Positions 24,536 through 44,453 of a stretch of 64,000 bases of DNA are shown one piece after another. The translations under genes were made by a program, and so were the position numbers. Each line of letters begins with the position of its first letter. The stretch's first letter is position 1. Below the pieces are notes generated by a model. That model did no database searches. It was not told where the DNA came from and saw only the letters and a list, made by a program, of their open reading frames with translations. Source of the stretch: a virus. Its lineage: Duplodnaviria; Caudoviricetes. Location: IMG/VR virus record IMGVR_UViG_3300011774_000001, positions 1 to 64,000 of that record. One strand, written 5' to 3'.

Positions 24536-27500
24536 ATGGCCGCTTACAACGTCTGGTTCGATAAAGAACCTGGCCGCTACACCAGTCCCCAGACCATTGG
24601 CTGGACTGTGTCTGATCAGGTTGACTTCTTCGCCATCTCCCAGGGCGATACCCCTGCCGCGATCTCGGAATACATTGCCTATGACACCCTAACGCCACCT
24701 AACCCGTTTATTGCAGTGACACAGGACGGTACAGGTAATGTTGTTTATGACGGGGGCTTCCCCAAGTTCATGAACGCCTCCTCTCCACCTTCCGGGATCA
24801 ACGCATCGATCACCATGGAGTTCAAGGCAACCAACGATGGTTCGTCCACCACGGGAAATGCCTACTACTACAACGCCTTCAGCGACCTGGCCGTCACCAT
24901 TGCTGCAGGCGACCGGCTGGTGTATGACATGTTGCAAGACAGTGCCAACGCCCGCGTGGGTATTGACGCCGTTACGACCAACAGTGCTCAGACCGACCCC
25001 AATCACTATTCGATGCGAGACTGGGGGCAGCCGATCAGTGTGCTACATGACCAGAATGGATTGAGTGTTCACCCGGCCAGTGATCTGGGTAACCGCGCCG
25101 TTAACCAGTGGTACCACCGCGAGTTCGACCTGTCCGCCTGTGCAGGCTATACGTTCGTTAAATGGTCCATGGCCTACGAGGGTGAAATCCCAGGTACGTT
25201 TGCCACTCGTTTCCGCGATGTCTACATCTTGGACAGCACTGGCAAGATCAAGGCGATTCTGTTTAAGGACACCATGCGTCTGCCCGGTAACTCCTCCACT
25301 GAGGTTGGTGCCTCGGGTTACACCAACCTGTCCAAGACGCTGTACGATCCGCGCTCGCAGTTGGCAGGTTCTTACAAGTACCTGTTCAACGCAATTCACT
25401 TCTGCTCCAATGCAAAAAAGAACGCTGCAGGTAATAAGAAGATTCTGATCCTGGGTGACCACACCAATGCGTCTTCGACCTATGCGGTGAAGAGCACCGC
25501 CGCCAGTGGTTTCATGACCAGCATGACCAACCTGTGCGCAGCCCTGGGCTACACACCCACGTTCAAGGACTTGAGCGATTATGGTGGTGCCCAGCTGAAC
25601 CCGACGCTGGCAGAGCTGGAACAATACAGTCTGGTGTTGATGTTCTCCACCCAATATAACCAGCAGAACGCTCCACTCATTACATCCGCAGCGGTGGATG
25701 CGTTTGTGGCTTACCGGTCAGCTGGTAGTGGCATCATTCTGATCACCGACCACGGTAGTTCCGTAATCACGGACATCGGTCAGGTTAACTTGGAGGTGGC
25801 TACTTCTGCCGGCTTCTATGGCACCTGTAACCGGATCGCCACTCGCTTTGGTGCTTGGTTCACAGGCAACTTTGACCGCACGCCGGTGAACGTAGGGTTT
25901 CTGCGCAGCACCTACGGGGAGCATCCGTTGTGGGCTGGGATGACCAATGATGAGAGCATCATTGCCGGGGGTTCTGAGTCCAAGGTGATGATCACCCCGT
26001 TCACCAAGTACACCAAGCTGAGTCTACCCCCCGCTATCAGTCTGCAAACCCCGCAGCGCAAAGTGGTGCAGGTAACGGCTAAGCTCAAAAACGGTGAGGC
26101 TGAAACCTTCCGTGTGGTGTTCATCTATGGTGACGGTTCTCTGATCAAGTGGGTTGACAGCAATCGCAATGAAGTAACGGCGGTTGACACCAAGTACGCT
26201 TGGAGCTTCTTGGTTGATCTGGCCCTCGATACCGTTGGGTTGGGTACATTGACGGGTTCCATCTACCACAACACTGTCAAGATCGGTGAGATTGTTTCAA
26301 CAGATGCTGGTGGTCCAGTGGTGACGTTCTACGCAGGGTCCTTGGCAGGTCACCGTTTCTTGAATGGAGATGTGTTGAAGGCTGCATTGGAAAACCCGAT
26401 CAGTGCCTCTGCTTCGATCACCGTTAGCCGAATCAACCTTGAACAACTCAAGGGACGTTCGCTGCCTGAGATCGCGCAGATGATCTCCCACAAGTACGGT
26501 GCAGGTACGGTCGCTGGCGATGCTGCCAAATTCCCGCAGCGGGCAATCATTGCCGCCGGTCGAGGGATCAAGTCGATCCTGCCCAAAGGTGCTTCGATTG
26601 ATGGGTATGGGTTGGTATTGGACTGGAATGATGCGGCGAGAAACATCCGCCTGATCAAAGAGTTCGCTAAGGGGAACTTCCCACTGGCACCTCTGAACGT
26701 TCTGCTGTATGAAGACCAGACCAAGGCCAACGTGGCCATGGCCAACTTCACCCCACCAACGCCCAAGCAGATCTTCGACACCTGGGGACGGTTCTCGAAT
26801 CAGGAATGGTACGAGCCAGGAGTTGTGCCTCCAGCGTCTTCTGAGGCGTCTGGCTGGACATGGGATGCCGCTTCCAATAGTGCCAAGTCTACGGTCAACT
26901 CTGCAAGCACAATTGGCTTTGTGTCCAAGGAGAAGGTAGAGGAGTACACCCACGACGTAACCCTCTCGTCTTCCAATGCGGATGATGATTGTGTCTGTGT
27001 GGTGATCGCTGCCACCAAGACAGGGAACCTGGTAGAGCATCTGTGTGTGGTGTTCTCGCCGGGTGGGTTTGGTTCTGCTCCAGTGACCCTGCAGTACAAC
27101 TTGGCGACTACAGGTGCTAAGGTACTGGTGTCTCGCAGTGTAATTGCGTTCGGTACACCTAACAGTGGACTGACGCCGTGGAGCGGTCGCAGTATTCGGG
27201 CTAACATCAGTCGTCGGGGATCGAGCATCAGTGTTTCCTACACGAACTGGAACGATCCGTTGGGTCCTTTGGTGGATACCTTCACGTTTGACATGGCCTC
27301 TGATCCGGTCTTGACAAACCTGTTAGGCCCACAGTCGTACGGCTACGCAGCGATGTCTCAGCCTGACGTGACCTTCCAAGGCATTACGTTCTTGGGTGGT
27401 GTACTGCTCAACACCCTGTCTGTGGCGTCTACAGGCGCAGTGTATCGTTGGAATGGATCGGCTTGGGCCCCACTGCCTAACACTAAGCTGAAAGACATCT

Positions 27501-28027
27501 ACGGCACCCAACGTAAGTTGGTGTCCTACTTGACCACGCAAGAGTTTTACGTGGATAAGAATGGTGTCGTAACCAAGCTGACAGACCCTGCTCCAATGTT
27601 GTTGTCCCCTCTGGTGAACTCAGCCTTCAAGAACCCAGTGACCAACGCGGTGATGTCGCCACAGTACAAGGTCTACTCGGCCAATTACGGCTGGCAATCG
27701 CTCCCTGCCAACTTGACGATGTATTACTACGCAGACCTCTACTTCCCAGCGGGCGACTACTGGTTTGTGGGTGCTGCGGATGATCAGCTGAACGTTGAGA
27801 TTGACGGGGTGTTCTACAAGAACCTCGGTGGTGGTTACGCTGAAGGGTCTGCGCCTAGTGCATTTAAGGTGACGCTGACAGCGGGCGTACACAAGTTGAA
27901 ACTGACTAACGTGAACGTCCCAGCCAATACTCCTGGGTATTGGTACATGTTGATCCTCAATGCTGCAGGCGCTATCTTCCACGAACCTACTCCAGGCACT
28001 TGGAAAACACTCGACTCGATCGGGTAA
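24536..28027 (+). CDS. Large multidomain tail fibre/adhesin (GATase-like, lectin-like and C-terminal PA14-like domains)
   Basis: 1163 aa; AGGAG RBS; LEQYSLVLM...GSGIILITDHG; NADDDCVCVV; YFPAGDYWFVGAADD...IDG...GVHKLKL. Confidence 0.7.
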   Translation: MAAYNVWFDKEPGRYTSPQTIGWTVSDQVDFFAISQGDTPAAISEYIAYDTLTPPNPFIAVTQDGTGNVVYDGGFPKFMNASSPPSGINASITMEFKATNDGSSTTGNAYYYNAFSDLAVTIAAGDRLVYDMLQDSANARVGIDAVTTNSAQTDPNHYSMRDWGQPISVLHDQNGLSVHPASDLGNRAVNQWYHREFDLSACAGYTFVKWSMAYEGEIPGTFATRFRDVYILDSTGKIKAILFKDTMRLPGNSSTEVGASGYTNLSKTLYDPRSQLAGSYKYLFNAIHFCSNAKKNAAGNKKILILGDHTNASSTYAVKSTAASGFMTSMTNLCAALGYTPTFKDLSDYGGAQLNPTLAELEQYSLVLMFSTQYNQQNAPLITSAAVDAFVAYRSAGSGIILITDHGSSVITDIGQVNLEVATSAGFYGTCNRIATRFGAWFTGNFDRTPVNVGFLRSTYGEHPLWAGMTNDESIIAGGSESKVMITPFTKYTKLSLPPAISLQTPQRKVVQVTAKLKNGEAETFRVVFIYGDGSLIKWVDSNRNEVTAVDTKYAWSFLVDLALDTVGLGTLTGSIYHNTVKIGEIVSTDAGGPVVTFYAGSLAGHRFLNGDVLKAALENPISASASITVSRINLEQLKGRSLPEIAQMISHKYGAGTVAGDAAKFPQRAIIAAGRGIKSILPKGASIDGYGLVLDWNDAARNIRLIKEFAKGNFPLAPLNVLLYEDQTKANVAMANFTPPTPKQIFDTWGRFSNQEWYEPGVVPPASSEASGWTWDAASNSAKSTVNSASTIGFVSKEKVEEYTHDVTLSSSNADDDCVCVVIAATKTGNLVEHLCVVFSPGGFGSAPVTLQYNLATTGAKVLVSRSVIAFGTPNSGLTPWSGRSIRANISRRGSSISVSYTNWNDPLGPLVDTFTFDMASDPVLTNLLGPQSYGYAAMSQPDVTFQGITFLGGVLLNTLSVASTGAVYRWNGSAWAPLPNTKLKDIYGTQRKLVSYLTTQEFYVDKNGVVTKLTDPAPMLLSPLVNSAFKNPVTNAVMSPQYKVYSANYGWQSLPANLTMYYYADLYFPAGDYWFVGAADDQLNVEIDGVFYKNLGGGYAEGSAPSAFKVTLTAGVHKLKLTNVNVPANTPGYWYMLILNAAGAIFHEPTPGTWKTLDSIG

Positions 28028-31184: not shown

Positions 31185-31240
31185 GATTTAACTGAATTTG
31201 GAACCTATATTACCCACATGAAGGTAGTATAAAAACCTTC
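31185..31240 (+). promoter_or_regulatory. Early (virion RNAP-type) promoter with TATATTAC core
   Basis: TATATTAC at 31206-31213 equals the phiKZ early promoter consensus; the ~40-bp context recurs at 34170. Confidence 0.75.
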
Positions 31241-31421: not shown

Positions 31422-31745
31422 ATGTTTAACAGTGATGTTGATGTAGCAGTGCTGGCAGGTATGGTTTACCTGCTGGTACTGATTATGTTTTATTACAAGA
31501 TCAAACGCATCTTTGCCAAGATCTTAGCCAGGAAGGTTTCTCAAACAGAGGGAGGTAATTTGAATATCGTGGCATGGAATGAAACGCACAACAGGACCGA
31601 GTACCTGAGTGTGGACACTTGCATACCACTGGAAAAATCCCAAGCCGTCATTCGAGCTGTACGGATGTGGGGCATCGTAAGAAGAAAAACCATCATCGAG
31701 ATCAAGGATGTCAACGCATCCAAAATCTTGTTTAGAACGTACTAA
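31422..31745 (+). CDS. Small single-pass membrane protein
   Basis: TAAGGA RBS; N-terminal TM helix. Confidence 0.75.
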   Translation: MFNSDVDVAVLAGMVYLLVLIMFYYKIKRIFAKILARKVSQTEGGNLNIVAWNETHNRTEYLSVDTCIPLEKSQAVIRAVRMWGIVRRKTIIEIKDVNASKILFRTY

Positions 31746-31755
31746 GGAGTAATGC

Positions 31756-32538
31756 ATGAAATACTTCTCTGCCGCCCTGTTGATTATCATGGGGGTGGTT
31801 GGTTTGATCACTGCTTATGGTCAGGCCGCCAACCACGTGATCCCTCAGGGCCTCTCAGCCTTCACCTATCCGCTGGGTTGGGTGGTGTTCGGTTTCATCA
31901 GTCTGTCTTACTGGCGACTGATGAAAGGAAAGGACGACATCATTGCCGCCAAGGACAAGCACATCCGTCAGTTGGGCGAGATGATGCAAAGTCACATGAC
32001 GGACAACGAGAACCTGCAGCGCAACAATAGCCACCTGCAGAGTAAGCTGAACTCTCTGCAGACCAGCCTCGATCTGGTGGAACGGTCCAACAACAACAAC
32101 CTGTTGATCGTTCGCCGTCTTAACCGCATTCTGGCCGACAACAACATCGACACCACGGCTGCCAACATTCCGCCGGCATCTGAAGGTGGCGAACTGCGCA
32201 GCTCTCGCGTGGCCCGTGAGAACCCAACTCCCCCGCCTCGTCTGGCAGACAACCTGCGTCCAGAAGTTGTACGCAGCGGTCGTTCCAGCATGGCGAGCCC
32301 TCACCAAAGTGCAGCACCTGTCAGTCACGACGATGGCCCAGGTTTCGGCACAGGCCTGTTGGTGGGTCACATGTTGTTCAGTGACAGTAGTTCGCCTCGC
32401 AGCGAACCTACCCCAAGTCGCTGTGATCCAACTCCGAGTTATTCGGAACCTACCCGCAGCGATCCATCGCCCAGCTACGACCCTCCATCCTCGACCTCCG
32501 ATTACGGTGGTGGCGGTGGTGGCGGCGGTTGCGACTGA
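31756..32538 (+). CDS. Two-TM protein with coiled coil and Ser/Pro/Gly-rich C-terminal tail
   Basis: TAAGGAG RBS; ends GGGGGGGGCD. Confidence 0.75.
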   Translation: MKYFSAALLIIMGVVGLITAYGQAANHVIPQGLSAFTYPLGWVVFGFISLSYWRLMKGKDDIIAAKDKHIRQLGEMMQSHMTDNENLQRNNSHLQSKLNSLQTSLDLVERSNNNNLLIVRRLNRILADNNIDTTAANIPPASEGGELRSSRVARENPTPPPRLADNLRPEVVRSGRSSMASPHQSAAPVSHDDGPGFGTGLLVGHMLFSDSSSPRSEPTPSRCDPTPSYSEPTRSDPSPSYDPPSSTSDYGGGGGGGGCD

Positions 32539-32605
32539 TACACCTCTCTGGGTCCCTGGGATTTCCCAGGGGCCTTATGCCCCCATGTCCTAAGGAGGAC
32601 CAACC

Positions 32606-33349
32606 ATGGCCATGCCTGGTGATGTACGTTCCATCCGTGAAGCCGATGTTTGCCCTTGCCAGTATGATGAATGCTCGGCCAGTGCAAGTCAGGAGTATTG
32701 CACCGAAGTTGATTCAATGGGTGCAGAGTGGCTGCCGCTGTGCGACGACCACATAGAGCAGTTCAAAGAAGATGTGGCCAATGCCAATGCGCTTGAGGAT
32801 AACGAGTGTGAGTGGTGCCATGCCACTGATGTGCACACAGCCCCTTTCCGTGACTGGCAGGAAGGCTCTCAGGGTCCTCTGTACGAGGTTTGTGACAAAT
32901 GTCGCGGCAAGTCCATTGACGAAGCCAATGAGTTGGCTAACAACGAGCCTGAGGAGCCTGAGGAAGGTGAGGAGCAGTTCGCTACCATGCCAGAACTCAG
33001 TGACGACGATATCGGACAGATGTTCAGTAAGCCGATTGATGTCGGGTATGAAGTGGATCACATCTTTGATCGATTGACCCTGCACGACCATTCCGGTACC
33101 ACCGACCTGAATGGCACTCAGTTTAACCTGAACGGCCCACTACTGCATGACGGCCAGTTGGGTTTCTCTGCGCACTATCAAGACGGCGTTCAGTTCGCAC
33201 TCTGTCTGGACCTGCAGTACGACATCCTGTTCTGGCGAGCACATTTCCCTCGTGAGTTCTACTTTGTCCACCTGCAAGAACGTGTCCTCGTCATTCGTCA
33301 ACGCATTGCCGCCCTTGGCTACTGCGTCAAAACCATCGAAGAACTTTAA
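32606..33349 (+). CDS. Cys-rich putative zinc-binding protein
   Basis: CxxxxC, CxxH, CEWC, CDKC; TAAGGAGG RBS. Confidence 0.75.
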   Translation: MAMPGDVRSIREADVCPCQYDECSASASQEYCTEVDSMGAEWLPLCDDHIEQFKEDVANANALEDNECEWCHATDVHTAPFRDWQEGSQGPLYEVCDKCRGKSIDEANELANNEPEEPEEGEEQFATMPELSDDDIGQMFSKPIDVGYEVDHIFDRLTLHDHSGTTDLNGTQFNLNGPLLHDGQLGFSAHYQDGVQFALCLDLQYDILFWRAHFPREFYFVHLQERVLVIRQRIAALGYCVKTIEEL

Positions 33350-33360
33350 GGAACATCACC

Positions 33361-34176
33361 ATGCAGTCTCTCGTAACCAAAGATCCATTGTTCACACTCA
33401 TGTTGTTGTGCGACGTGCTGAAGGTCGAAGCCAACGACCACACTACCTGTTACAACACTGTGGGGCAACACCTGACCAAGCTTATCAAAGGCGGTCTGGA
33501 AATGGACGACGACACCTTCAAGCGTCTGTCCAATGGCAACACCCTGTTCGAAATAGACTTCTGGCCGCAACGTGCAGAGGGTGGTTGTTCTCTGGTGGGT
33601 GATGACTTCGAAGCCCTGCTGGATCAAGCCATTGCCATTGCCCGTCCCTGGGCGCTGGACCCAGATGAGTTGGCGGCCATTGATGAGGATGGCGATCACA
33701 TGTCTGGAGATGAGGAGAACAACTCTACCACCAACTTCCTCAGAATGGTGGCGGGTTCTAAGTGCGCCGTTGGTTGTTCCCTGAATGCCCATCGTTTGGA
33801 TTCGATTGGTGAGCCCGGCAAACCAATGCGTCCACAGACTGTTCTCGACGCATTGCAGTGGAAGATCGACAATGGCGACGACGAAGTTGAGGATGCTCTG
33901 GAAAATGGCGAATATGCGGCCATGATCGAAGAGGACGTCATGGTAGAGGCGTATGCCTACACCAGCACCCCAGTCGGTTCCTATGACATCTTCCACCTCA
34001 ACTGGCAACCCTGCCTGCGGCAGATGCGTCAGATCGTTGAATCAGCCAATATCGATCCGTTGATCCAAGGCCTGAACCTGCACACTGATAAGGTGGCAGC
34101 AGAGCTGCGTCAACAAGGTGTGGAAAACATGTCCGAATTGTGGACCCACGCCGAAAACAAAGATGGGGCGATTTAA
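33361..34176 (+). CDS. Acidic hypothetical protein
   Basis: TAAGGA RBS; 271-aa ORF. Confidence 0.75.
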   Translation: MQSLVTKDPLFTLMLLCDVLKVEANDHTTCYNTVGQHLTKLIKGGLEMDDDTFKRLSNGNTLFEIDFWPQRAEGGCSLVGDDFEALLDQAIAIARPWALDPDELAAIDEDGDHMSGDEENNSTTNFLRMVAGSKCAVGCSLNAHRLDSIGEPGKPMRPQTVLDALQWKIDNGDDEVEDALENGEYAAMIEEDVMVEAYAYTSTPVGSYDIFHLNWQPCLRQMRQIVESANIDPLIQGLNLHTDKVAAELRQQGVENMSELWTHAENKDGAI

Positions 34177-34234
34177 ACGAATCTCGAACCTATAATACCC
34201 ACGTGAATAGAGTCAATAAAAGACTTCTGTTCAC
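34170..34234 (+). promoter_or_regulatory. Early promoter (TATAATAC variant) with 5' leader hairpin
   Basis: GATTTAAACGAATCTCGAACCTATAATACCCACGTGAA, similar to 31185; followed by GTGAATAGAGTC-AATAAAA-GACTTCTGTTCAC. Confidence 0.7.
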
Positions 34235-34263
34235 ATCAATCCCCATGTTCTAAGGAGAACAAA

Positions 34264-34599
34264 ATGGAAACTTATTTCATCGTTTCTGGTGTTATCACCA
34301 ATGCGGTTGTTATCGCCGCCGCCGTGTTGTGGATCGTCTACTGGGTGATCCTGCGTAAGGGTGTGGATGTACGAGAGGTAGGCGTTATGAACGCCGAAGT
34401 GAAGGAAGGCGATGACTGGGTTGAGGTGGTTGAAGAGGGTGGGGTAGTTAAGCACTACATCCTGACCTTCACAGCCATCCGTCGCCGTTACTACTCCATC
34501 TGGTCCATGCGCCGTCAGATCTGGAAGTCTGTAAAGCGCATGCATCCAAACGTCCGAGCTGTTAGCGTGGAAGGCTTCGCTTACGGCTTCGACGATTAG
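34264..34599 (+). CDS. Single-pass membrane protein, paralogue of 35187..35498
   Basis: TM plus C-terminal IWKSVKR...V.AV...G..Y.F. Confidence 0.75.
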   Translation: METYFIVSGVITNAVVIAAAVLWIVYWVILRKGVDVREVGVMNAEVKEGDDWVEVVEEGGVVKHYILTFTAIRRRYYSIWSMRRQIWKSVKRMHPNVRAVSVEGFAYGFDD

Positions 34600-34623
34600 T
34601 CACCACGATCTAAGGAGATCACA

Positions 34624-35121
34624 ATGAAGGTTCGCATTAGTGTGGTAGAAGGTTCGATGGCCAATTTCGAATCTCGCTTCCCGTTGGAAGCATCCCTCAT
34701 CTATCAGGGGGATGATGCGGCATTCGCACCCATTGCTGCAATGTACGGTCAGTTCGAATCCTACGCCCTGCGTGTGGAGAAGATGTTCGACGCTCTGATC
34801 CAATTGGGTGGGGAGGGCATGATCAGCTACATGCTGAACATGGGTCAGCGCCTGTCGGCTGATCTGGGGCTGGGTTTGGGTTACCGGGACGAGCCGTGGA
34901 TTAATCTAGTGCCTGTCTACACCCACGGCCTGAAGACCCCGTTCTCCATTCACCATGGCATGAACAACCTCTCGGCCAGCGCTGTCCACTTCACCGACTG
35001 GGCTTTCCAGATGGCGATGGACACTGGCGAATCGGGTAAGTTGGATTTCGAACATCAACAGTTCGATGAGTTTATCCAATCCCTGCGTGATGAACTCTTC
35101 CGCCTAACCGAAGGCAAATAA
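34624..35121 (+). CDS. Hypothetical protein
   Basis: TAAGGAG RBS. Confidence 0.75.
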   Translation: MKVRISVVEGSMANFESRFPLEASLIYQGDDAAFAPIAAMYGQFESYALRVEKMFDALIQLGGEGMISYMLNMGQRLSADLGLGLGYRDEPWINLVPVYTHGLKTPFSIHHGMNNLSASAVHFTDWAFQMAMDTGESGKLDFEHQQFDEFIQSLRDELFRLTEGK

Positions 35122-35186
35122 CCCGCAACACTCCAGCCCCTCAGTGGGGTTGGAGACTATTCCCAAGTCCTAAGGAGGACACTGTA

Positions 35187-35498
35187 ATGACCGCTATCAT
35201 CGTTATCGCTGTACTGGCTGCAATCGTACTGGCTGTTGTTGTAGCACGCCGTATGCGCCACCATGGCTTCACCCTGCAAGAGGTATCCATCTATCAAGAA
35301 GCTGCCTCTCAAAAGGCTGACAACTTCGTAGAGATCACTGTTGCTGGCTGCCGGTTGCGCAAGCCACTGGCTGTAGAGGTTGAACTGGAACGCCGGTTCA
35401 ACCCAGAGAAACTGCGTGAAGCCATCTGGCGGAGCGTTAAGCGTTACGACGATCGTGTGAGCGCTGTGCGCTTCCAAGGTCACACCTACTCGTTCTAA
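35187..35498 (+). CDS. Single-pass membrane protein, paralogue of 34264..34599
   Basis: TM plus IWRSVKR...VSAV..QG..YSF. Confidence 0.75.
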   Translation: MTAIIVIAVLAAIVLAVVVARRMRHHGFTLQEVSIYQEAASQKADNFVEITVAGCRLRKPLAVEVELERRFNPEKLREAIWRSVKRYDDRVSAVRFQGHTYSF

Positions 35499-35558
35499 TC
35501 ACAGAACACACCCCCACTCGGGTGAGTGGGGGCTTATGCCGTCTATAGGAGATTCACA

Positions 35559-35828
35559 ATGGCTGCTGTAAAAGTAATCGTAAACCGCGTCAACATGCTG
35601 GTAATGCCAGAGTTCCGTCAAGTCCTCAAAGAGTGGGAAGACTTCAGCAAGTCGGGTGACCGTCTGGTTGGTCTGGTCCGCACCAAATGGGACGGTGATT
35701 ACAACCTGGAAGAAGTCATGACTGCATCGCGTTTCTCTATCCCCGGTCTGCAAGACGCAAAACGGGACCTCATGGCGACCATCGCCGAATACGACAAGGT
35801 AAACAACAATGAACATGCAATTGCTTGA
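35559..35828 (+). CDS. Hypothetical protein
   Basis: AGGAG RBS before ATG 35559. Confidence 0.7.
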   Translation: MAAVKVIVNRVNMLVMPEFRQVLKEWEDFSKSGDRLVGLVRTKWDGDYNLEEVMTASRFSIPGLQDAKRDLMATIAEYDKVNNNEHAIA

Positions 35829-35991
35829 GTTGAACAGTATGATCCTTTCCATCGGTGAACAACTGCGCCTAGTCTCCAAGAGTCTGGCGCAGGCTGACGG
35901 TCATCAGGTTGAACTGCTGACCACTCAACGGGACACCCTGCTGAATGAATATACTGCCCTGTGCAGCAAAGCTGCTACCCTGATCGCTTAA
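35809..35991 (+). CDS. Small helical hypothetical protein
   Basis: AAGGT RBS; overlaps upstream gene. Confidence 0.6.
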   Translation: MNMQLLELNSMILSIGEQLRLVSKSLAQADGHQVELLTTQRDTLLNEYTALCSKAATLIA

Positions 35992-36038
35992 GTCTATACT
36001 TAAGTGCATTGGGGGCAGTGCTTTTAAGTATAGACTTA
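35989..36038. repeat. 15-bp perfect AT-rich inverted repeat
   Basis: TAAGTCTATACTTAA ... TTAAGTATAGACTTA with a 20-nt self-complementary spacer. Confidence 0.9.
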
Positions 36039-36064
36039 TCTTCCCCAGATCCTAAGGAGGATCA

Positions 36065-36388
36065 ATGAAGGTCTTTAAGACTTCCCGCACATCGCCTGCT
36101 GTAGACATGCGCAAGAACTACGCTGACCCAATGTTTAAGGAGATGGACTTGATTGAGTATGACATCACTCGTGAAACTCATCAGGTGCGTTTCTTTGAAA
36201 TGCTCGAAGCCCTCACCTTACCTGTGTATGGAAAAGGCTTAGACAAGGTTGGCCGCATGGTCCTGTTCCTGTACGACCACCGCGGTAAGGTGATCATCTA
36301 CCAGAACGGACAGACGCTCTCATCCATCTACGACAACGAACAAACACAAGCTGCAGTATCCACCATCTTGGATAACATGCGCAAATAA
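36065..36388 (+). CDS. Hypothetical protein
   Basis: TAAGGAGG RBS. Confidence 0.75.
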   Translation: MKVFKTSRTSPAVDMRKNYADPMFKEMDLIEYDITRETHQVRFFEMLEALTLPVYGKGLDKVGRMVLFLYDHRGKVIIYQNGQTLSSIYDNEQTQAAVSTILDNMRK

Positions 36389-36389
36389 C

Positions 36390-36423
36390 GGCATAGCCTC
36401 CCTCCCCTTGCGGGGAGGGAGGC
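36390..36423. terminator. Hairpin at convergent junction preceded by GGCATA
   Basis: GCCTCCCTCCCC-TTGC-GGGGAGGGAGGC. Confidence 0.85.
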
Positions 36424-36433
36424 CAATCGCCTG

Positions 36434-41946: not shown

Positions 41947-44453
41947 CAGCTGATCTCCACATGAATGTTCGCATCGACTGGACGCGTGATATTTCTGTCA
42001 TCCAATACCACGAACTCGGCTTGGTTGAATGAACCGTAGACCGACGAATAATGACTGACCATGAACAACTGACTGAAGCGACCTTGCTCCATCAGTGCCT
42101 GAATGTAACTCACCAGACGCTCACGGTGCTCATCGTCAAAGTCCTTACCGAACTCATCCGCCAGCAGTGGGTAATCGTGCAGCCCCGACAGCTCCATCAC
42201 CACCAACTTGAACACCCAGTCAATCATGGAGACTTGACCGGTTGACCCATCGGCTACATCGCCATCTGGGTTGGGTTCGTTGTTGACAATGATCGGCAAC
42301 TTTACATTGAGGGTGGCACCTTCTTCCAGCACAGCATCCAATTCCATCGGATACGTCCAGACCATCTCAATGTGTTCGTTGATCATGCCGCAGAAGTGAC
42401 GGATGAAGTCTTTGGTGATCTCAGCCACAATGCCGTGAGTAGGCGACAGGGCTTTGGCCAACAGCTTGTACGCATTGTACTTGCTCTCAACATCAATCAG
42501 CTCTTCACGAGTGTTCTCGTAGCGGGCTTGCAGGTCACGATAGCGCTGAGTGGTTTGATGTAGGACACCCAGACGCGTCATCACCTTGCCACGGACTTTA
42601 TCCAGATGCTCATCACGCAACGCATCTTCGACCTGAGTACGCAGTTGAGTGAACTGTTCACAGGCTGCAAACATCTCACCGAGCAACCCATCCAGTTTCT
42701 CCAGATGTTGGTACTCTTCAGACAGCTCAGCAATCTCAACGATGGCTTTGTTAATCGCTTCGTACTTGTCGTGCAGCTCACCTTCCAACAGGTCAGCACG
42801 CTGCAACAGGAACTTAGGATCACCGCTGTTCTTGATCAGCTCCAGACGCGATTTGAGATCGTTTAGTTCGGCCGTAATACGTTGGGCGTAAGCCGTATCC
42901 AAAAGTCGTCTGATGGTGTCTGCGAGCGCCACAGGGATCATGGCAGGGTTAGTCTTGACGTAACCTCGATCAGAGACCAGGTTCCAGAACTGCTCCAGCA
43001 CTTTACTGCTACTGCGGATGTTGGCCAACTCACCCAACTTACGGCTGTAGCCATCAAATTCATCGATGTGAACTTGCAGCTCTTCCATCTGACGAGTGGC
43101 TTCTTCCACCTTGCTGCGACGAGTAGCCAGCCCAGTCTCAGTATCGCGTACCAGATCAGCAGGCCAACCCGGCTTGAAGGTGAACTGACATTTAGGGCAG
43201 TCGGTGTCCGGTGTGTGGGTGGCATGTTCCAGTGTGGCCTCCATCTTGGAGATGAGGTTGTTCTGTTCAATGCACCACTGGCTCAGACGCTGGTGACGCT
43301 CTACCCGTTCGTTGTGCTGACCCCGTGTGTAGAGATTGTTCTCATTAGACGGGATTTGTACACACAGTTCAGCCAGTTGCTGCTGGATACCCTGAGCAAC
43401 CGTCAGCAGACCTTCTGGAGAGCTTTCTCCGCACTCATACAGCGCGCCTTGAGCCAAGATACCACTCAGCTCTTCTTCGATCTGAGAGATGCGTGTAGTG
43501 AGCTGTGAGGGGTCATCCAGAGATTCCCGTCCTACGTGCTTGATCAGCGATTGGATACCTTCCAGTGCTTTCTCATGGGTGTCGCATTCGCCCCGAGTCT
43601 GTAGCATGCGGTTACGCAGTTGGGTGATCTCTTGATCGACCTGTTCCTTAGTCTTGCCCCCGTACTGACCGCCCCGACGAATCACCGTCTCTGCCACAAT
43701 GGTTTGTGAGCGCTGATGGATGGTCTGGTAGGCTGTCTGCATGCGTTTAACCAACACGCTAGAGTCAGCTACCGACATACGGCCATTGAGGGCCTGATTG
43801 AGTTCCAGGCCCAATTGCTTGAGTTCTGTGACCTCGCTGTCGGTGTCCTTGTAGTCGTCCTCCAGAGAACGAATCTCATCGGCCATGTTGTGGGTGTTTT
43901 CCATGAGGTACTTCATGGTGCCTTGCAGGTCACGCGCTTTAACACGGAACTCTTCGAACAAACCCAACACGAAATCAAAGTCGGTGCCGGAGATACGCAT
44001 CATCCATTCACGACGTTTGGCAGGCGACATCTTAGACAGACGCACTTGACCTGTAAGGATGTCTGCGATCTCAGGGGTCAACCCCACGTACTTCTCAACC
44101 AACTCTTTCTGAGTGGCCTGAGTGTTGCCGTCGTTGAGTTGAACACCACTCATGGTAAAGGAGTGATGACCCGCTTTAACCTTATAGACGCTGACCAAAT
44201 GGAACGGTTGATCATTGTGGTCGAAGAAGTATTCGACACCGCCACCTGGATGGAATCGACTGCCGTTAGGTACAAGCCACAGGATCAATCGCAGCAAAGA
44301 ACTTTTACCCGCCCCGTTACTGCCCAGGATCACTTGTTCTTGTGAATGAGGGCTCCACTCAAAGCGTTGAATCTTGGCAAGGTCAAACGACTTATAGCCG
44401 GTGACAATCATTTTGGTAAGACGCATGGTCGGGCTTTCCGTATTCGTAGGCAT
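41946..44453 (-). CDS. sbcC: SbcC/Rad50-like SMC ATPase (phiKZ gp165-like)
   Basis: Walker A GSNGAGKS, long coiled coils, zinc hook CPKC, signature STGQ, Walker B LLADE, H-loop VSH. Confidence 0.92.
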   Translation of the reverse strand: MPTNTESPTMRLTKMIVTGYKSFDLAKIQRFEWSPHSQEQVILGSNGAGKSSLLRLILWLVPNGSRFHPGGGVEYFFDHNDQPFHLVSVYKVKAGHHSFTMSGVQLNDGNTQATQKELVEKYVGLTPEIADILTGQVRLSKMSPAKRREWMMRISGTDFDFVLGLFEEFRVKARDLQGTMKYLMENTHNMADEIRSLEDDYKDTDSEVTELKQLGLELNQALNGRMSVADSSVLVKRMQTAYQTIHQRSQTIVAETVIRRGGQYGGKTKEQVDQEITQLRNRMLQTRGECDTHEKALEGIQSLIKHVGRESLDDPSQLTTRISQIEEELSGILAQGALYECGESSPEGLLTVAQGIQQQLAELCVQIPSNENNLYTRGQHNERVERHQRLSQWCIEQNNLISKMEATLEHATHTPDTDCPKCQFTFKPGWPADLVRDTETGLATRRSKVEEATRQMEELQVHIDEFDGYSRKLGELANIRSSSKVLEQFWNLVSDRGYVKTNPAMIPVALADTIRRLLDTAYAQRITAELNDLKSRLELIKNSGDPKFLLQRADLLEGELHDKYEAINKAIVEIAELSEEYQHLEKLDGLLGEMFAACEQFTQLRTQVEDALRDEHLDKVRGKVMTRLGVLHQTTQRYRDLQARYENTREELIDVESKYNAYKLLAKALSPTHGIVAEITKDFIRHFCGMINEHIEMVWTYPMELDAVLEEGATLNVKLPIIVNNEPNPDGDVADGSTGQVSMIDWVFKLVVMELSGLHDYPLLADEFGKDFDDEHRERLVSYIQALMEQGRFSQLFMVSHYSSVYGSFNQAEFVVLDDRNITRPVDANIHVEIS

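Follow-up and report, generated by a model that had tools for sequence, protein, structure and literature searches.

What purpose is served by a small hairpin that recurs over the ribosome-binding sites of a series of phage genes? The question is raised by a 64,000-nucleotide (nt) stretch of viral DNA, here called the window, which makes up the first 64 kb of one IMG/VR virus contig, 230,984 bp in length. A reading of the window made from its letters (the sequence-only reading) had singled out six sites between positions 31,740 and 36,063 at which TAAGGA, part of a Shine-Dalgarno (SD) sequence, appeared as the invariant loop of a hairpin whose stem changes while pairing is preserved. It proposed that accessory genes are co-controlled through these sites by host Rsm/Csr proteins or a phage RNA-binding protein, or that the sites are RNA processing or export signals. 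We find that the element is a real, sharply bounded family, that selection maintains the pairing of its stem, and that its structure belongs to RNA; we lean towards a role in translation initiation.

The source is an uncultured phiKZ-like giant (jumbo) phage. Its 1163-amino-acid (aa) virion protein (24536-28027) is 30-52% identical to proteins of phiKZ-like Pseudomonas jumbo phages, with pPa_SNUABM_DT01 the closest cultured phage, and the genome encodes a multisubunit RNA polymerase (RNAP) beta-like protein. The phage collection that we searched held no near-identical record. In phiKZ-like phages, DNA is transcribed inside a vesicle or nucleus by the phage's own polymerases, and host ribosomes must be competed for. 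Translation control in these phages is almost unexplored, and the element offers a concrete handle on how they rank and time early protein synthesis and plug in ORFan cassettes.

A sharply bounded family in two gene islands

All six reported strings are present at their given positions in the window. A fuzzy search of the genome showed that the full repeated unit is longer than the hairpin first described: it spans 22-24 nt and reads T[TC]CCCA, one base, G[TA][CT]C, T[AT][AG]GGA and G[GA][AT]C, while the alignment consensus is TNNCCA-N-GWYC-TWRGGA-GRWC. As RNA, the element consists of a single-stranded UNNCCA box, one spacer base, a 4-bp stem GWYC/GRWC and the loop UWRGGA, with the AUG 1-7 nt past the stem. 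The flanks directly outside the 22-nt unit are dissimilar between copies.

We built a covariance model, R1, from 34 copies and scanned the genome with it. R1 found 11 strong copies (29-37.5 bits), all on the + strand, and the next match outside the seed scored 13.1 bits. Two islands hold all 11, island A at 32.6-36.1 kb and island B at 100.6-106.4 kb, and the element occurs only on the coding strand, directly 5' of start codons. The box is present in 11/11 copies at a constant distance of 1 nt from the stem; the sequence-only reading had noted it at five sites as C-rich, a description that is better replaced by TNNCCA. The loop is roughly, but not strictly, invariant, since the same genome also has TTAGGA (104207) and TAGGGA (106338), and a related contig, L088, has a 5-nt TAGGA.

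Five of the six sites first reported are true members of this family. The sixth, at 31740, has no box, lies inside the upstream ORF (open reading frame) and does not fold as a hairpin, and we therefore set it aside. It scored 21.7 bits (31730-31753) despite being a seed of R1, RNAfold gave it a different structure of -0.9 kcal/mol with no stable hairpin, and its gap to the upstream gene is 10 nt.

Neither the motif nor its complementary flanks are as frequent by chance. TAAGGA occurs 32 times in the window versus 15.6 +/- 3.9 times in shuffles, and 0/100 shuffles reach 32. Across the genome, 9/107 TAAGGA sites have flanks complementary over at least 4 bp where about 0.4 would be expected (107/256), and all nine fall at 32.6-36.1 kb or 100.6-105.4 kb. 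A search of the 285 called genes for any hairpin over any SD returned 40 versus 19 +/- 4 in shuffles, a noisy signal that is mostly unrelated to the element.

In the two islands, which are probably made up of early, accessory genes, nearly every separately translated gene begins with the element. Within island A, it stands before five of the six genes that are preceded by a gap of at least 24 nt, and the sixth (starting at 35559) has a degenerate form; genes coupled within 11 nt lack it. R1 found no copies outside the islands, which bears out the earlier remark that the structure is absent from structural genes. The tagged genes are ORFans, with a hydrophobic segment at the start of 5/11. Protein searches of the phage collection with the products of two tagged genes, A2 and B4, gave only weak partial matches or none, and when 20 island proteins were scanned against Pfam and PHROG, the yield was limited to weak sub-threshold matches and one PHROG of unknown function.

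The early assignment is consistent with the early-promoter-like motifs that head the islands. A 20-nt motif, AACCTAnAnTAnCnAnnTGA, has 16 sites within 2 mismatches on the + strand and 0 on the - strand. It is likely the virion-RNAP early-promoter consensus, and it agrees with what has been published on the early promoters of jumbo phages, namely that their motif is AT-rich, highly conserved and phage-specific, with its centre near -10 (PMC7598289). The sites are often preceded by TTnAA...TTTCA. Those at 31202, 34187 and 100588 head the islands and read TACC(C/A)AC, where most others read TATC. The remaining 13 of the 16 units lack the element, which is therefore island-specific and not a general early-gene or export tag; a general export signal is accordingly unlikely.

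The stem is maintained by selection and belongs to RNA

A pattern scan of IMG/VR and follow-up searches recovered related copies in several genomes. The close relative G001 (231.7 kb; 72-89% DNA identity over aligned island blocks) has 10 copies in the same two islands, and a 140-kb fragment, G003, has 5. G002 (250 kb) and its fragment G004 have 2 and 1, and the G002 copies adjoin a repeated motif that ends ...ACATGATAGCGGTGAACC. L088, a 49-kb contig syntenic with island A, has 5, three of them with the TAGGA loop. Finally, pPa_SNUABM_DT01 (265.5 kb, cultured on P. aeruginosa) has 5, before PA10_00289, _00303 and _00304 and at 43180 and 121366. R1 had no match in phiKZ or PhiPA3, and the first 50 kb of phiKZ show a weak generic excess of SD hairpins (5/58 versus 1.75) without a family; the metagenome scan yielded no further lineages with several copies.

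Comparison of these copies showed that stems are exchanged while pairing is kept. Copy B2 has GATC/GATC in this genome and GTTC/GAAC in G001, and B4 has GTCC/GGAC here and GATCC/GGATC in G003. At A2, the GTCC/GGAC stem is replaced by GTTC/GAAC in G001, L088 has (A)GCTC/GAGT(T), which includes a G.U pair, and the GATC/GATC stem of A4 is GTCC/GGAC before the homologous gene of L088. At the position of A3, L088 has a GTCC/GGAC stem with the TAGGA loop; the gene there encodes a hydrophobic N-terminal stretch and has only faint similarity (E 0.012). With the additional stems CATGC/GCATG and GGAC/GTCC of pPa_SNUABM_DT01, there are seven stem types across the genomes, all of which pair.

We measured covariation on 34 copies from 8 contigs, in 29 distinct rows. 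Two-sided changes occur at pairs 10-23, 11-22 and 12-21 in 2, 5 and 9 sequences, respectively, with 1, 0 and 0 sequences unpaired, so that three of the four pairs capable of varying show compensatory changes. The inner C-G and U-A pairs never vary, and the outer 9-24 pair is not conserved. Overall, 90% of cells are paired, versus 77% in shuffles (0/500 reach the observed score) and at most 71% with slid partners. Selection thus maintains the pairing of the stem, in keeping with the remark of the sequence-only reading that the stem changes with its pairing preserved, and the model and scan that it called for delimit a sharply bounded family with covarying pairs. Because a G.U pair is tolerated, the orientation is strictly that of the coding strand and the position before the AUG is fixed, we assign the structure to RNA and not to DNA. 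The L088 copies keep the stem despite changes in loop and box, which makes stem and SD together the element's most durable part.

An exceptionally strong Shine-Dalgarno sequence, half-buried

RNAfold predicted the hairpin as the minimum-free-energy structure of all true copies, with a 5-6-bp stem that includes the U-A pair, an AAGG tetraloop and energies of -4.4 to -7.9 kcal/mol. Placed in 160 nt of context, it has a probability of at least 0.78 in 7/11 copies and of 0.42-0.54 in the others. The element carries a long SD, UAAGGAGG, which is formed by the 3' arm and the AAGG loop and lies half within the stem. Because the U-A pair closes and leaves an AAGG tetraloop, the SD is half-buried, and TAAGGA is not simply presented as the open loop that had been described.

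We then ranked SDs against what we take to be the 3' tail of 16S rRNA. Only 16 of the 285 mechanically called genes have at least 7 nt complementary to this tail, and element copies make up 9 of them; elsewhere 4-5 nt is usual. UAAGGAGG is the longest SD in the genome, and the element carries exceptionally strong SDs. The near-invariance of the loop is largely explained by its belonging to this maximal SD. This leaves the CCA box and the complementary arm on the 5' side to be explained.

A proposed translation-initiation module

On balance, judging from sequence and predicted fold, we lean towards the element being an RNA-level translation-initiation module, or operator, in the 5' leaders of single cistrons. 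The 5' arm would act as an internal mimic of the anti-SD, holding the strong SD half-paired in a small autonomous hairpin, and the 30S subunit would load only once this weak hairpin opens. The island cistrons would thereby share one standard, context-insulated and gateable initiation site, whatever the origin of the cassette. Less surely, one trans-acting factor, from phage or host, might read the box and hairpin together and co-time translation or message decay.

Several points weigh against this proposal. A 5-bp hairpin of about -6 kcal/mol is readily opened by an 8-bp SD:anti-SD duplex, and the effect in cis alone could be small. The folding z-scores of single sequences do not reach significance, which is to be expected at a length of about 30 nt, and the case therefore rests on covariation; because the copies are partly paralogous, the counts given above overstate the number of independent events. 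The notion of a shared factor has its own difficulties. The box degenerates in L088 while the hairpin persists, and the loop may lose a base (TAGGA). We found no homologue of CsrA (PF02599), RegA or RegB (PF10715) in the phage, and the island proteins, which have no confident Pfam match, provide no candidate binding protein. The degenerate L088 boxes and the lack of a candidate weaken the trans-acting part of the mechanism. When we looked for a mirror small RNA, anti-box and anti-SD words in non-coding DNA proved to be only reverse complements of copies or of other ribosome-binding sites. Pairing between box and loop in a pseudoknot was rejected on geometry by inspection, as nothing would remain to serve as a linker on the 3' side of the paired loop.

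More tentatively, the conserved box and hairpin could define a regulon of nucleus-forming jumbo phages, in which one phage-encoded or hijacked host RNA-binding factor would use the UNNCCA box and SD hairpin to switch the early accessory set. Fast-evolving early proteins, many of them small membrane proteins, would then be switched together, and new cassettes would join by landing behind the tag. Of the regulon first suggested, the part that stands is that a defined subset of accessory, probably early, genes is tagged; a link to Rsm/Csr is unsupported and no binding partner was found. Because related copies occur in the cultured P. aeruginosa phage pPa_SNUABM_DT01, these ideas are bench-testable now, and a further use of the element might be as a ribosome-binding-site part that is portable and insulated from context.

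Alternative explanations

Rather than acting in translation, the 22-nt unit might be a cassette-boundary repeat that, together with terminator-type hairpins, supplies short homology for the gain, loss and swapping of ORFan cassettes. Homology to G001 stops at 34602 and resumes at 35157, the cassette with the 165-aa A4 gene being absent from G001; it ends again at 36061, inside the A6 element, and resumes at 36388, at a terminator, with a different gene between. Further, an intergenic hairpin with homology to island B (103029-103145) turns up in L088, inside a region that is otherwise syntenic with island A. The coincidence of homology breaks with element and terminators indicates that these frame exchangeable gene cassettes, for which the PeSL cassettes of T4-type phages are a precedent (PMC2839356). 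Recombination, however, needs identity and not pairing, and the arms change with complementarity kept, once through a G.U pair. Where G001 has the deletion, its junction does not read as a simple hybrid of the flanking copies, and the unit contains no sigma-70 promoter: no sigma-70-type site was found at any copy, with 2 sites in 5.6 kb versus 3.8 expected. We therefore consider boundary homology unlikely as the explanation of the element, although such a role can hold alongside a translational one.

We also considered RNA processing or stability, in which an endoribonuclease would cut near the box or GGAG, or the hairpin would shield processed monocistronic 5' ends while the upstream hairpins mark 3' ends. 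A stable hairpin lies a few bases upstream of 5/11 copies, and two such hairpins, at 32553-32579 and 35511-35539 of the window, have the form of the phiKZ terminator motif, a hairpin plus TTAT (PMC10914365). Confinement to probable early messages also recalls the targets of RegB (PMC3014915). Yet four copies directly follow an upstream stop codon and have no hairpin, the phage lacks a RegB homologue, and RegB favours unpaired GGA with an A-rich 3' context, whereas here GGAG is partly paired and followed by GAC or ATC. Processing strikes us as a doubtful explanation.

A third possibility is that the hairpin's GGA is a target of host RsmA/CsrA, which would either repress the island messages or be titrated by them. 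The consensus known from the RsmE-hcnA complex and from SELEX experiments is (A/U)CANGGANG(U/A), in which a C-G pair closes an ANGGAN loop. This register is not the one seen here: the covarying C-G pair closes UAAGGA, and GGA is shifted by one. In the predicted fold, the two Gs lie in the AAGG loop and the A is paired; with the U-A pair open, GGA occupies loop positions 4-6. An alternative register with an ANGGAN loop was rejected, since the next pair (C with A) fails. In favour of Rsm/Csr, the core AAGGAGG holds ANGGA in or next to a hairpin loop over the SD, ANGGA/AGGA in hairpin loops is the recognition motif of RsmA/E (PMC7911923), and the nearest cultured relative infects Pseudomonas. By contrast, the start codons of the five window copies have no consistent second GGA nearby, although a target should offer two or more GGA sites for the dimer to bridge, the conserved CCA box plays no part in Rsm binding, and the phage has no CsrA. 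Binding is possible but unsupported, and the Rsm/Csr co-control put forward originally now appears improbable.

A DNA-level signal, be it a phage RNAP promoter, possibly an extruded hairpin as for the N4 virion RNAP, or the site of a DNA-binding protein, is very improbable: several copies follow terminator-like hairpins, where re-initiation would make sense, the box is preceded in G001 and G002 by AACCTA, the first six bases of the early-promoter consensus, and the TACCCAC/TACCAAC of the island promoters resembles the box, but the centre of the palindrome is asymmetric, being the SD, a G.U pair is tolerated, orientation is strictly that of the coding strand and the AUG distance is fixed. That the element is itself a phiKZ-type early promoter for the virion RNAP is ruled out, as no copy lies within 6/21 mismatches of AACCTAnAnTAnCnAnnTGA. 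Moreover, three genes of pPa_SNUABM_DT01 are preceded by another promoter-like motif, ACGATACATGATAGCGGTGA, which is also found before the G002 copies, and yet both phages have the same box and hairpin.

Features of the window and neighbouring observations

Table 1. Coordinates of the element copies, promoter-like motifs and hairpins. Window and genome numbering coincide; R1 scores are in bits and folding energies in kcal/mol; TM, transmembrane segment.
Feature	Position	Strand	Description
Early-promoter-like motif AACCTATATTACCCACATGAA	31202..31222	+	Start of island A
Look-alike TAC-TAAGGA-GTA	31740..31751	+	Within upstream ORF, TAA being its stop codon; no box
Terminator-like hairpin CCCTGGG/CCCAGGG, then TTATG	32553..32579	+	Abuts the A2 box; phiKZ terminator type
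Copy A2	32578..32601	+	Box CCCCCA, stem GTCC/GGAC, loop TAAGGA; R1 29.3; fold -5.7; start codon 32606, 247-aa ORFan, phrog_15864
Second early-promoter-like motif AACCTATAATACCCACGTGAA	34187..34207	+	About 33 nt upstream of A3; conserved in G001 and L088
Copy A3	34238..34261	+	Box TCCCCA, stem (T)GTTC/GAAC(A); R1 36.4; fold -4.9; start codon 34264, 111 aa, N-terminal TM (34264-34599)
Copy A4	34598..34621	+	Box TCACCA, stem GATC/GATC; R1 30.8; start codon 34624, 165 aa
Hairpin CTCCAGCCCC/GGGGTTGGAG	35131..35155	+	Between A4 and copy A5; from sequence
Copy A5	35158..35181	+	Box TTCCCA, stem GTCC/GGAC; R1 37.0; fold -6.4; start codon 35187, 103 aa, N-terminal TM (35187-35498)
Degenerate hairpin TCT-ATAGG-AGA	35542..35552	+	Before the 89-aa gene starting at 35559; read from sequence, not found by R1
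Long imperfect hairpin	35990..36037	+	Just upstream of A6; conserved in G001
Copy A6	36040..36063	+	Box TCCCCA, stem GATCC/GGATC (5 bp plus U-A); R1 30.0; fold -7.7; start codon 36065, 107 aa
Terminator-like hairpin	36389..36433		Closes island A, between convergent genes; G001 homology resumes here
AACCTAnAnTAnCnAnnTGA sites, window	1008, 31202, 34187, 57219	+
AACCTAnAnTAnCnAnnTGA sites, rest of genome	78945, 80312, 100588, 128502, 132555, 144549, 148435, 163722, 173622, 183740, 188782, 225531	+

The A3 hairpin has a pairing probability of 0.99 in its 160-nt context, and the A3 and A5 proteins are paralogues (29% identity, E 1e-9). The look-alike at 31740 stands before a gene (31756-32538) for a 260-aa protein with a hydrophobic N-terminus, a P/S-rich tail and a run of eight glycines at its end, which has a weak sub-threshold Pfam match to the 8xMP octameric membrane protein family.

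Two further sites outside the window resemble parts of the element. In island B, at 106738-106752, TAAGGAGGAC precedes a 169-aa gene with ACCCGA in place of the 5' arm and looks like a copy that has lost this arm. Outside the islands, at 162630-162646, a GCCT-AAGG-AGGC hairpin covers the SD TAAGGAGG before a 137-aa gene and has no box.

A recurrent feature behind genes is a GC-rich hairpin with (T)TATGC after it, as at 32553-32579 and 35511-35539, in the gaps before 24536 and 31269 and at many places genome-wide; these hairpins conform to the phiKZ terminator motif (PMC10914365). T-ATG is the core of the late promoter (PMC7598289), and these units, which also contain it, may combine terminator and promoter.

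Among metagenomic sequences, L001, L008, L009 and about 14 further IMG/VR contigs of 1-3.5 kb carry CCCATGTGC-TAAGGA-GCAC followed by GAGGGAAA(A/G)GATG, with the same box, loop and paired stem, inside a long ORF with no Pfam match. These contigs may be RNA viruses and their resemblance to the element coincidental. Five soil-metagenome contigs (L108, L109, L114, L118 and L121) each have a single copy, AGCCCA-C-GTCC-TAAGGA-GGAC-acccgcATG, with a partial duplicate, CCCACGTCCTG, upstream.

Comparison with known systems

No Rfam family matched the element, the only hit being a sub-threshold chance match at the 36393 terminator, and our literature search turned up nothing of this kind described for jumbo phages. 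Hairpins that occlude the SD are familiar from translational coupling and from fourU RNA thermometers, where a small hairpin that can melt pairs a run of pyrimidines with the AGGA of the SD. Those are single-gene devices, whereas the element forms a family within one phage lineage, numbers about a dozen copies to a genome and has a conserved box at its flank. Rsm/Csr hairpins, such as RsmE-hcnA and the loops of RsmZ/CsrB, are likewise short, have GGA in or at the loop and overlap the SD; the element differs in the register of GGA, in having a single site per cistron and in its extra 5' box.

In phage T4, the RegB/S1 sites and RegA operators similarly mark a class of early messages at the ribosome-binding site for common post-transcriptional control (PMC3014915). 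RegB sites, however, are unstructured, consisting of GGAG and an A-rich tail (GGAGRAYARAA), and structure protects them from cleavage (PMC3014915). In T4-type phages, the mobile PeSL cassettes (Arbiol et al. 2010, PMC2839356; PMC4122927) resemble the element in being repeated regulatory units of hyperplastic, ORFan-rich early regions that bound indels and replacements between close relatives. They consist of sigma-70 early promoters and terminator stem-loops and work at the level of DNA and transcription, whereas the element has no sigma-70 promoter but a ribosome-binding-site hairpin with covarying pairing.

The closest described system comes from Cluster K mycobacteriophages and consists of their start-associated sequences, SAS/ESAS (Pope et al. 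2011, PMC3203893). Like the element, the SAS is a short, conserved, asymmetric sequence that contains an SD, keeps to one orientation and is separated from start codons by a few bp; it precedes 11-19 non-structural genes of unrelated families, is conserved across its phage group and is suspected of a role in translation initiation. Its positional rule, 3-7 bp before the start codons of non-structural genes in one orientation, also describes the element, by analogy only. The SAS belongs to another phage group and host, and its sequence, 5'-GGGATAGGAGCCC with up to 2 deviations, does not match the element. The outer bases of the SAS are self-complementary (GGG...CCC) (PMC3203893), but no covarying stem has been reported for it, and the inverted repeats of the ESAS, according to its authors, do not support RNA pairing. 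In the element, unlike the SAS, pairing is itself the conserved feature, and it is joined by a 5' CCA box.

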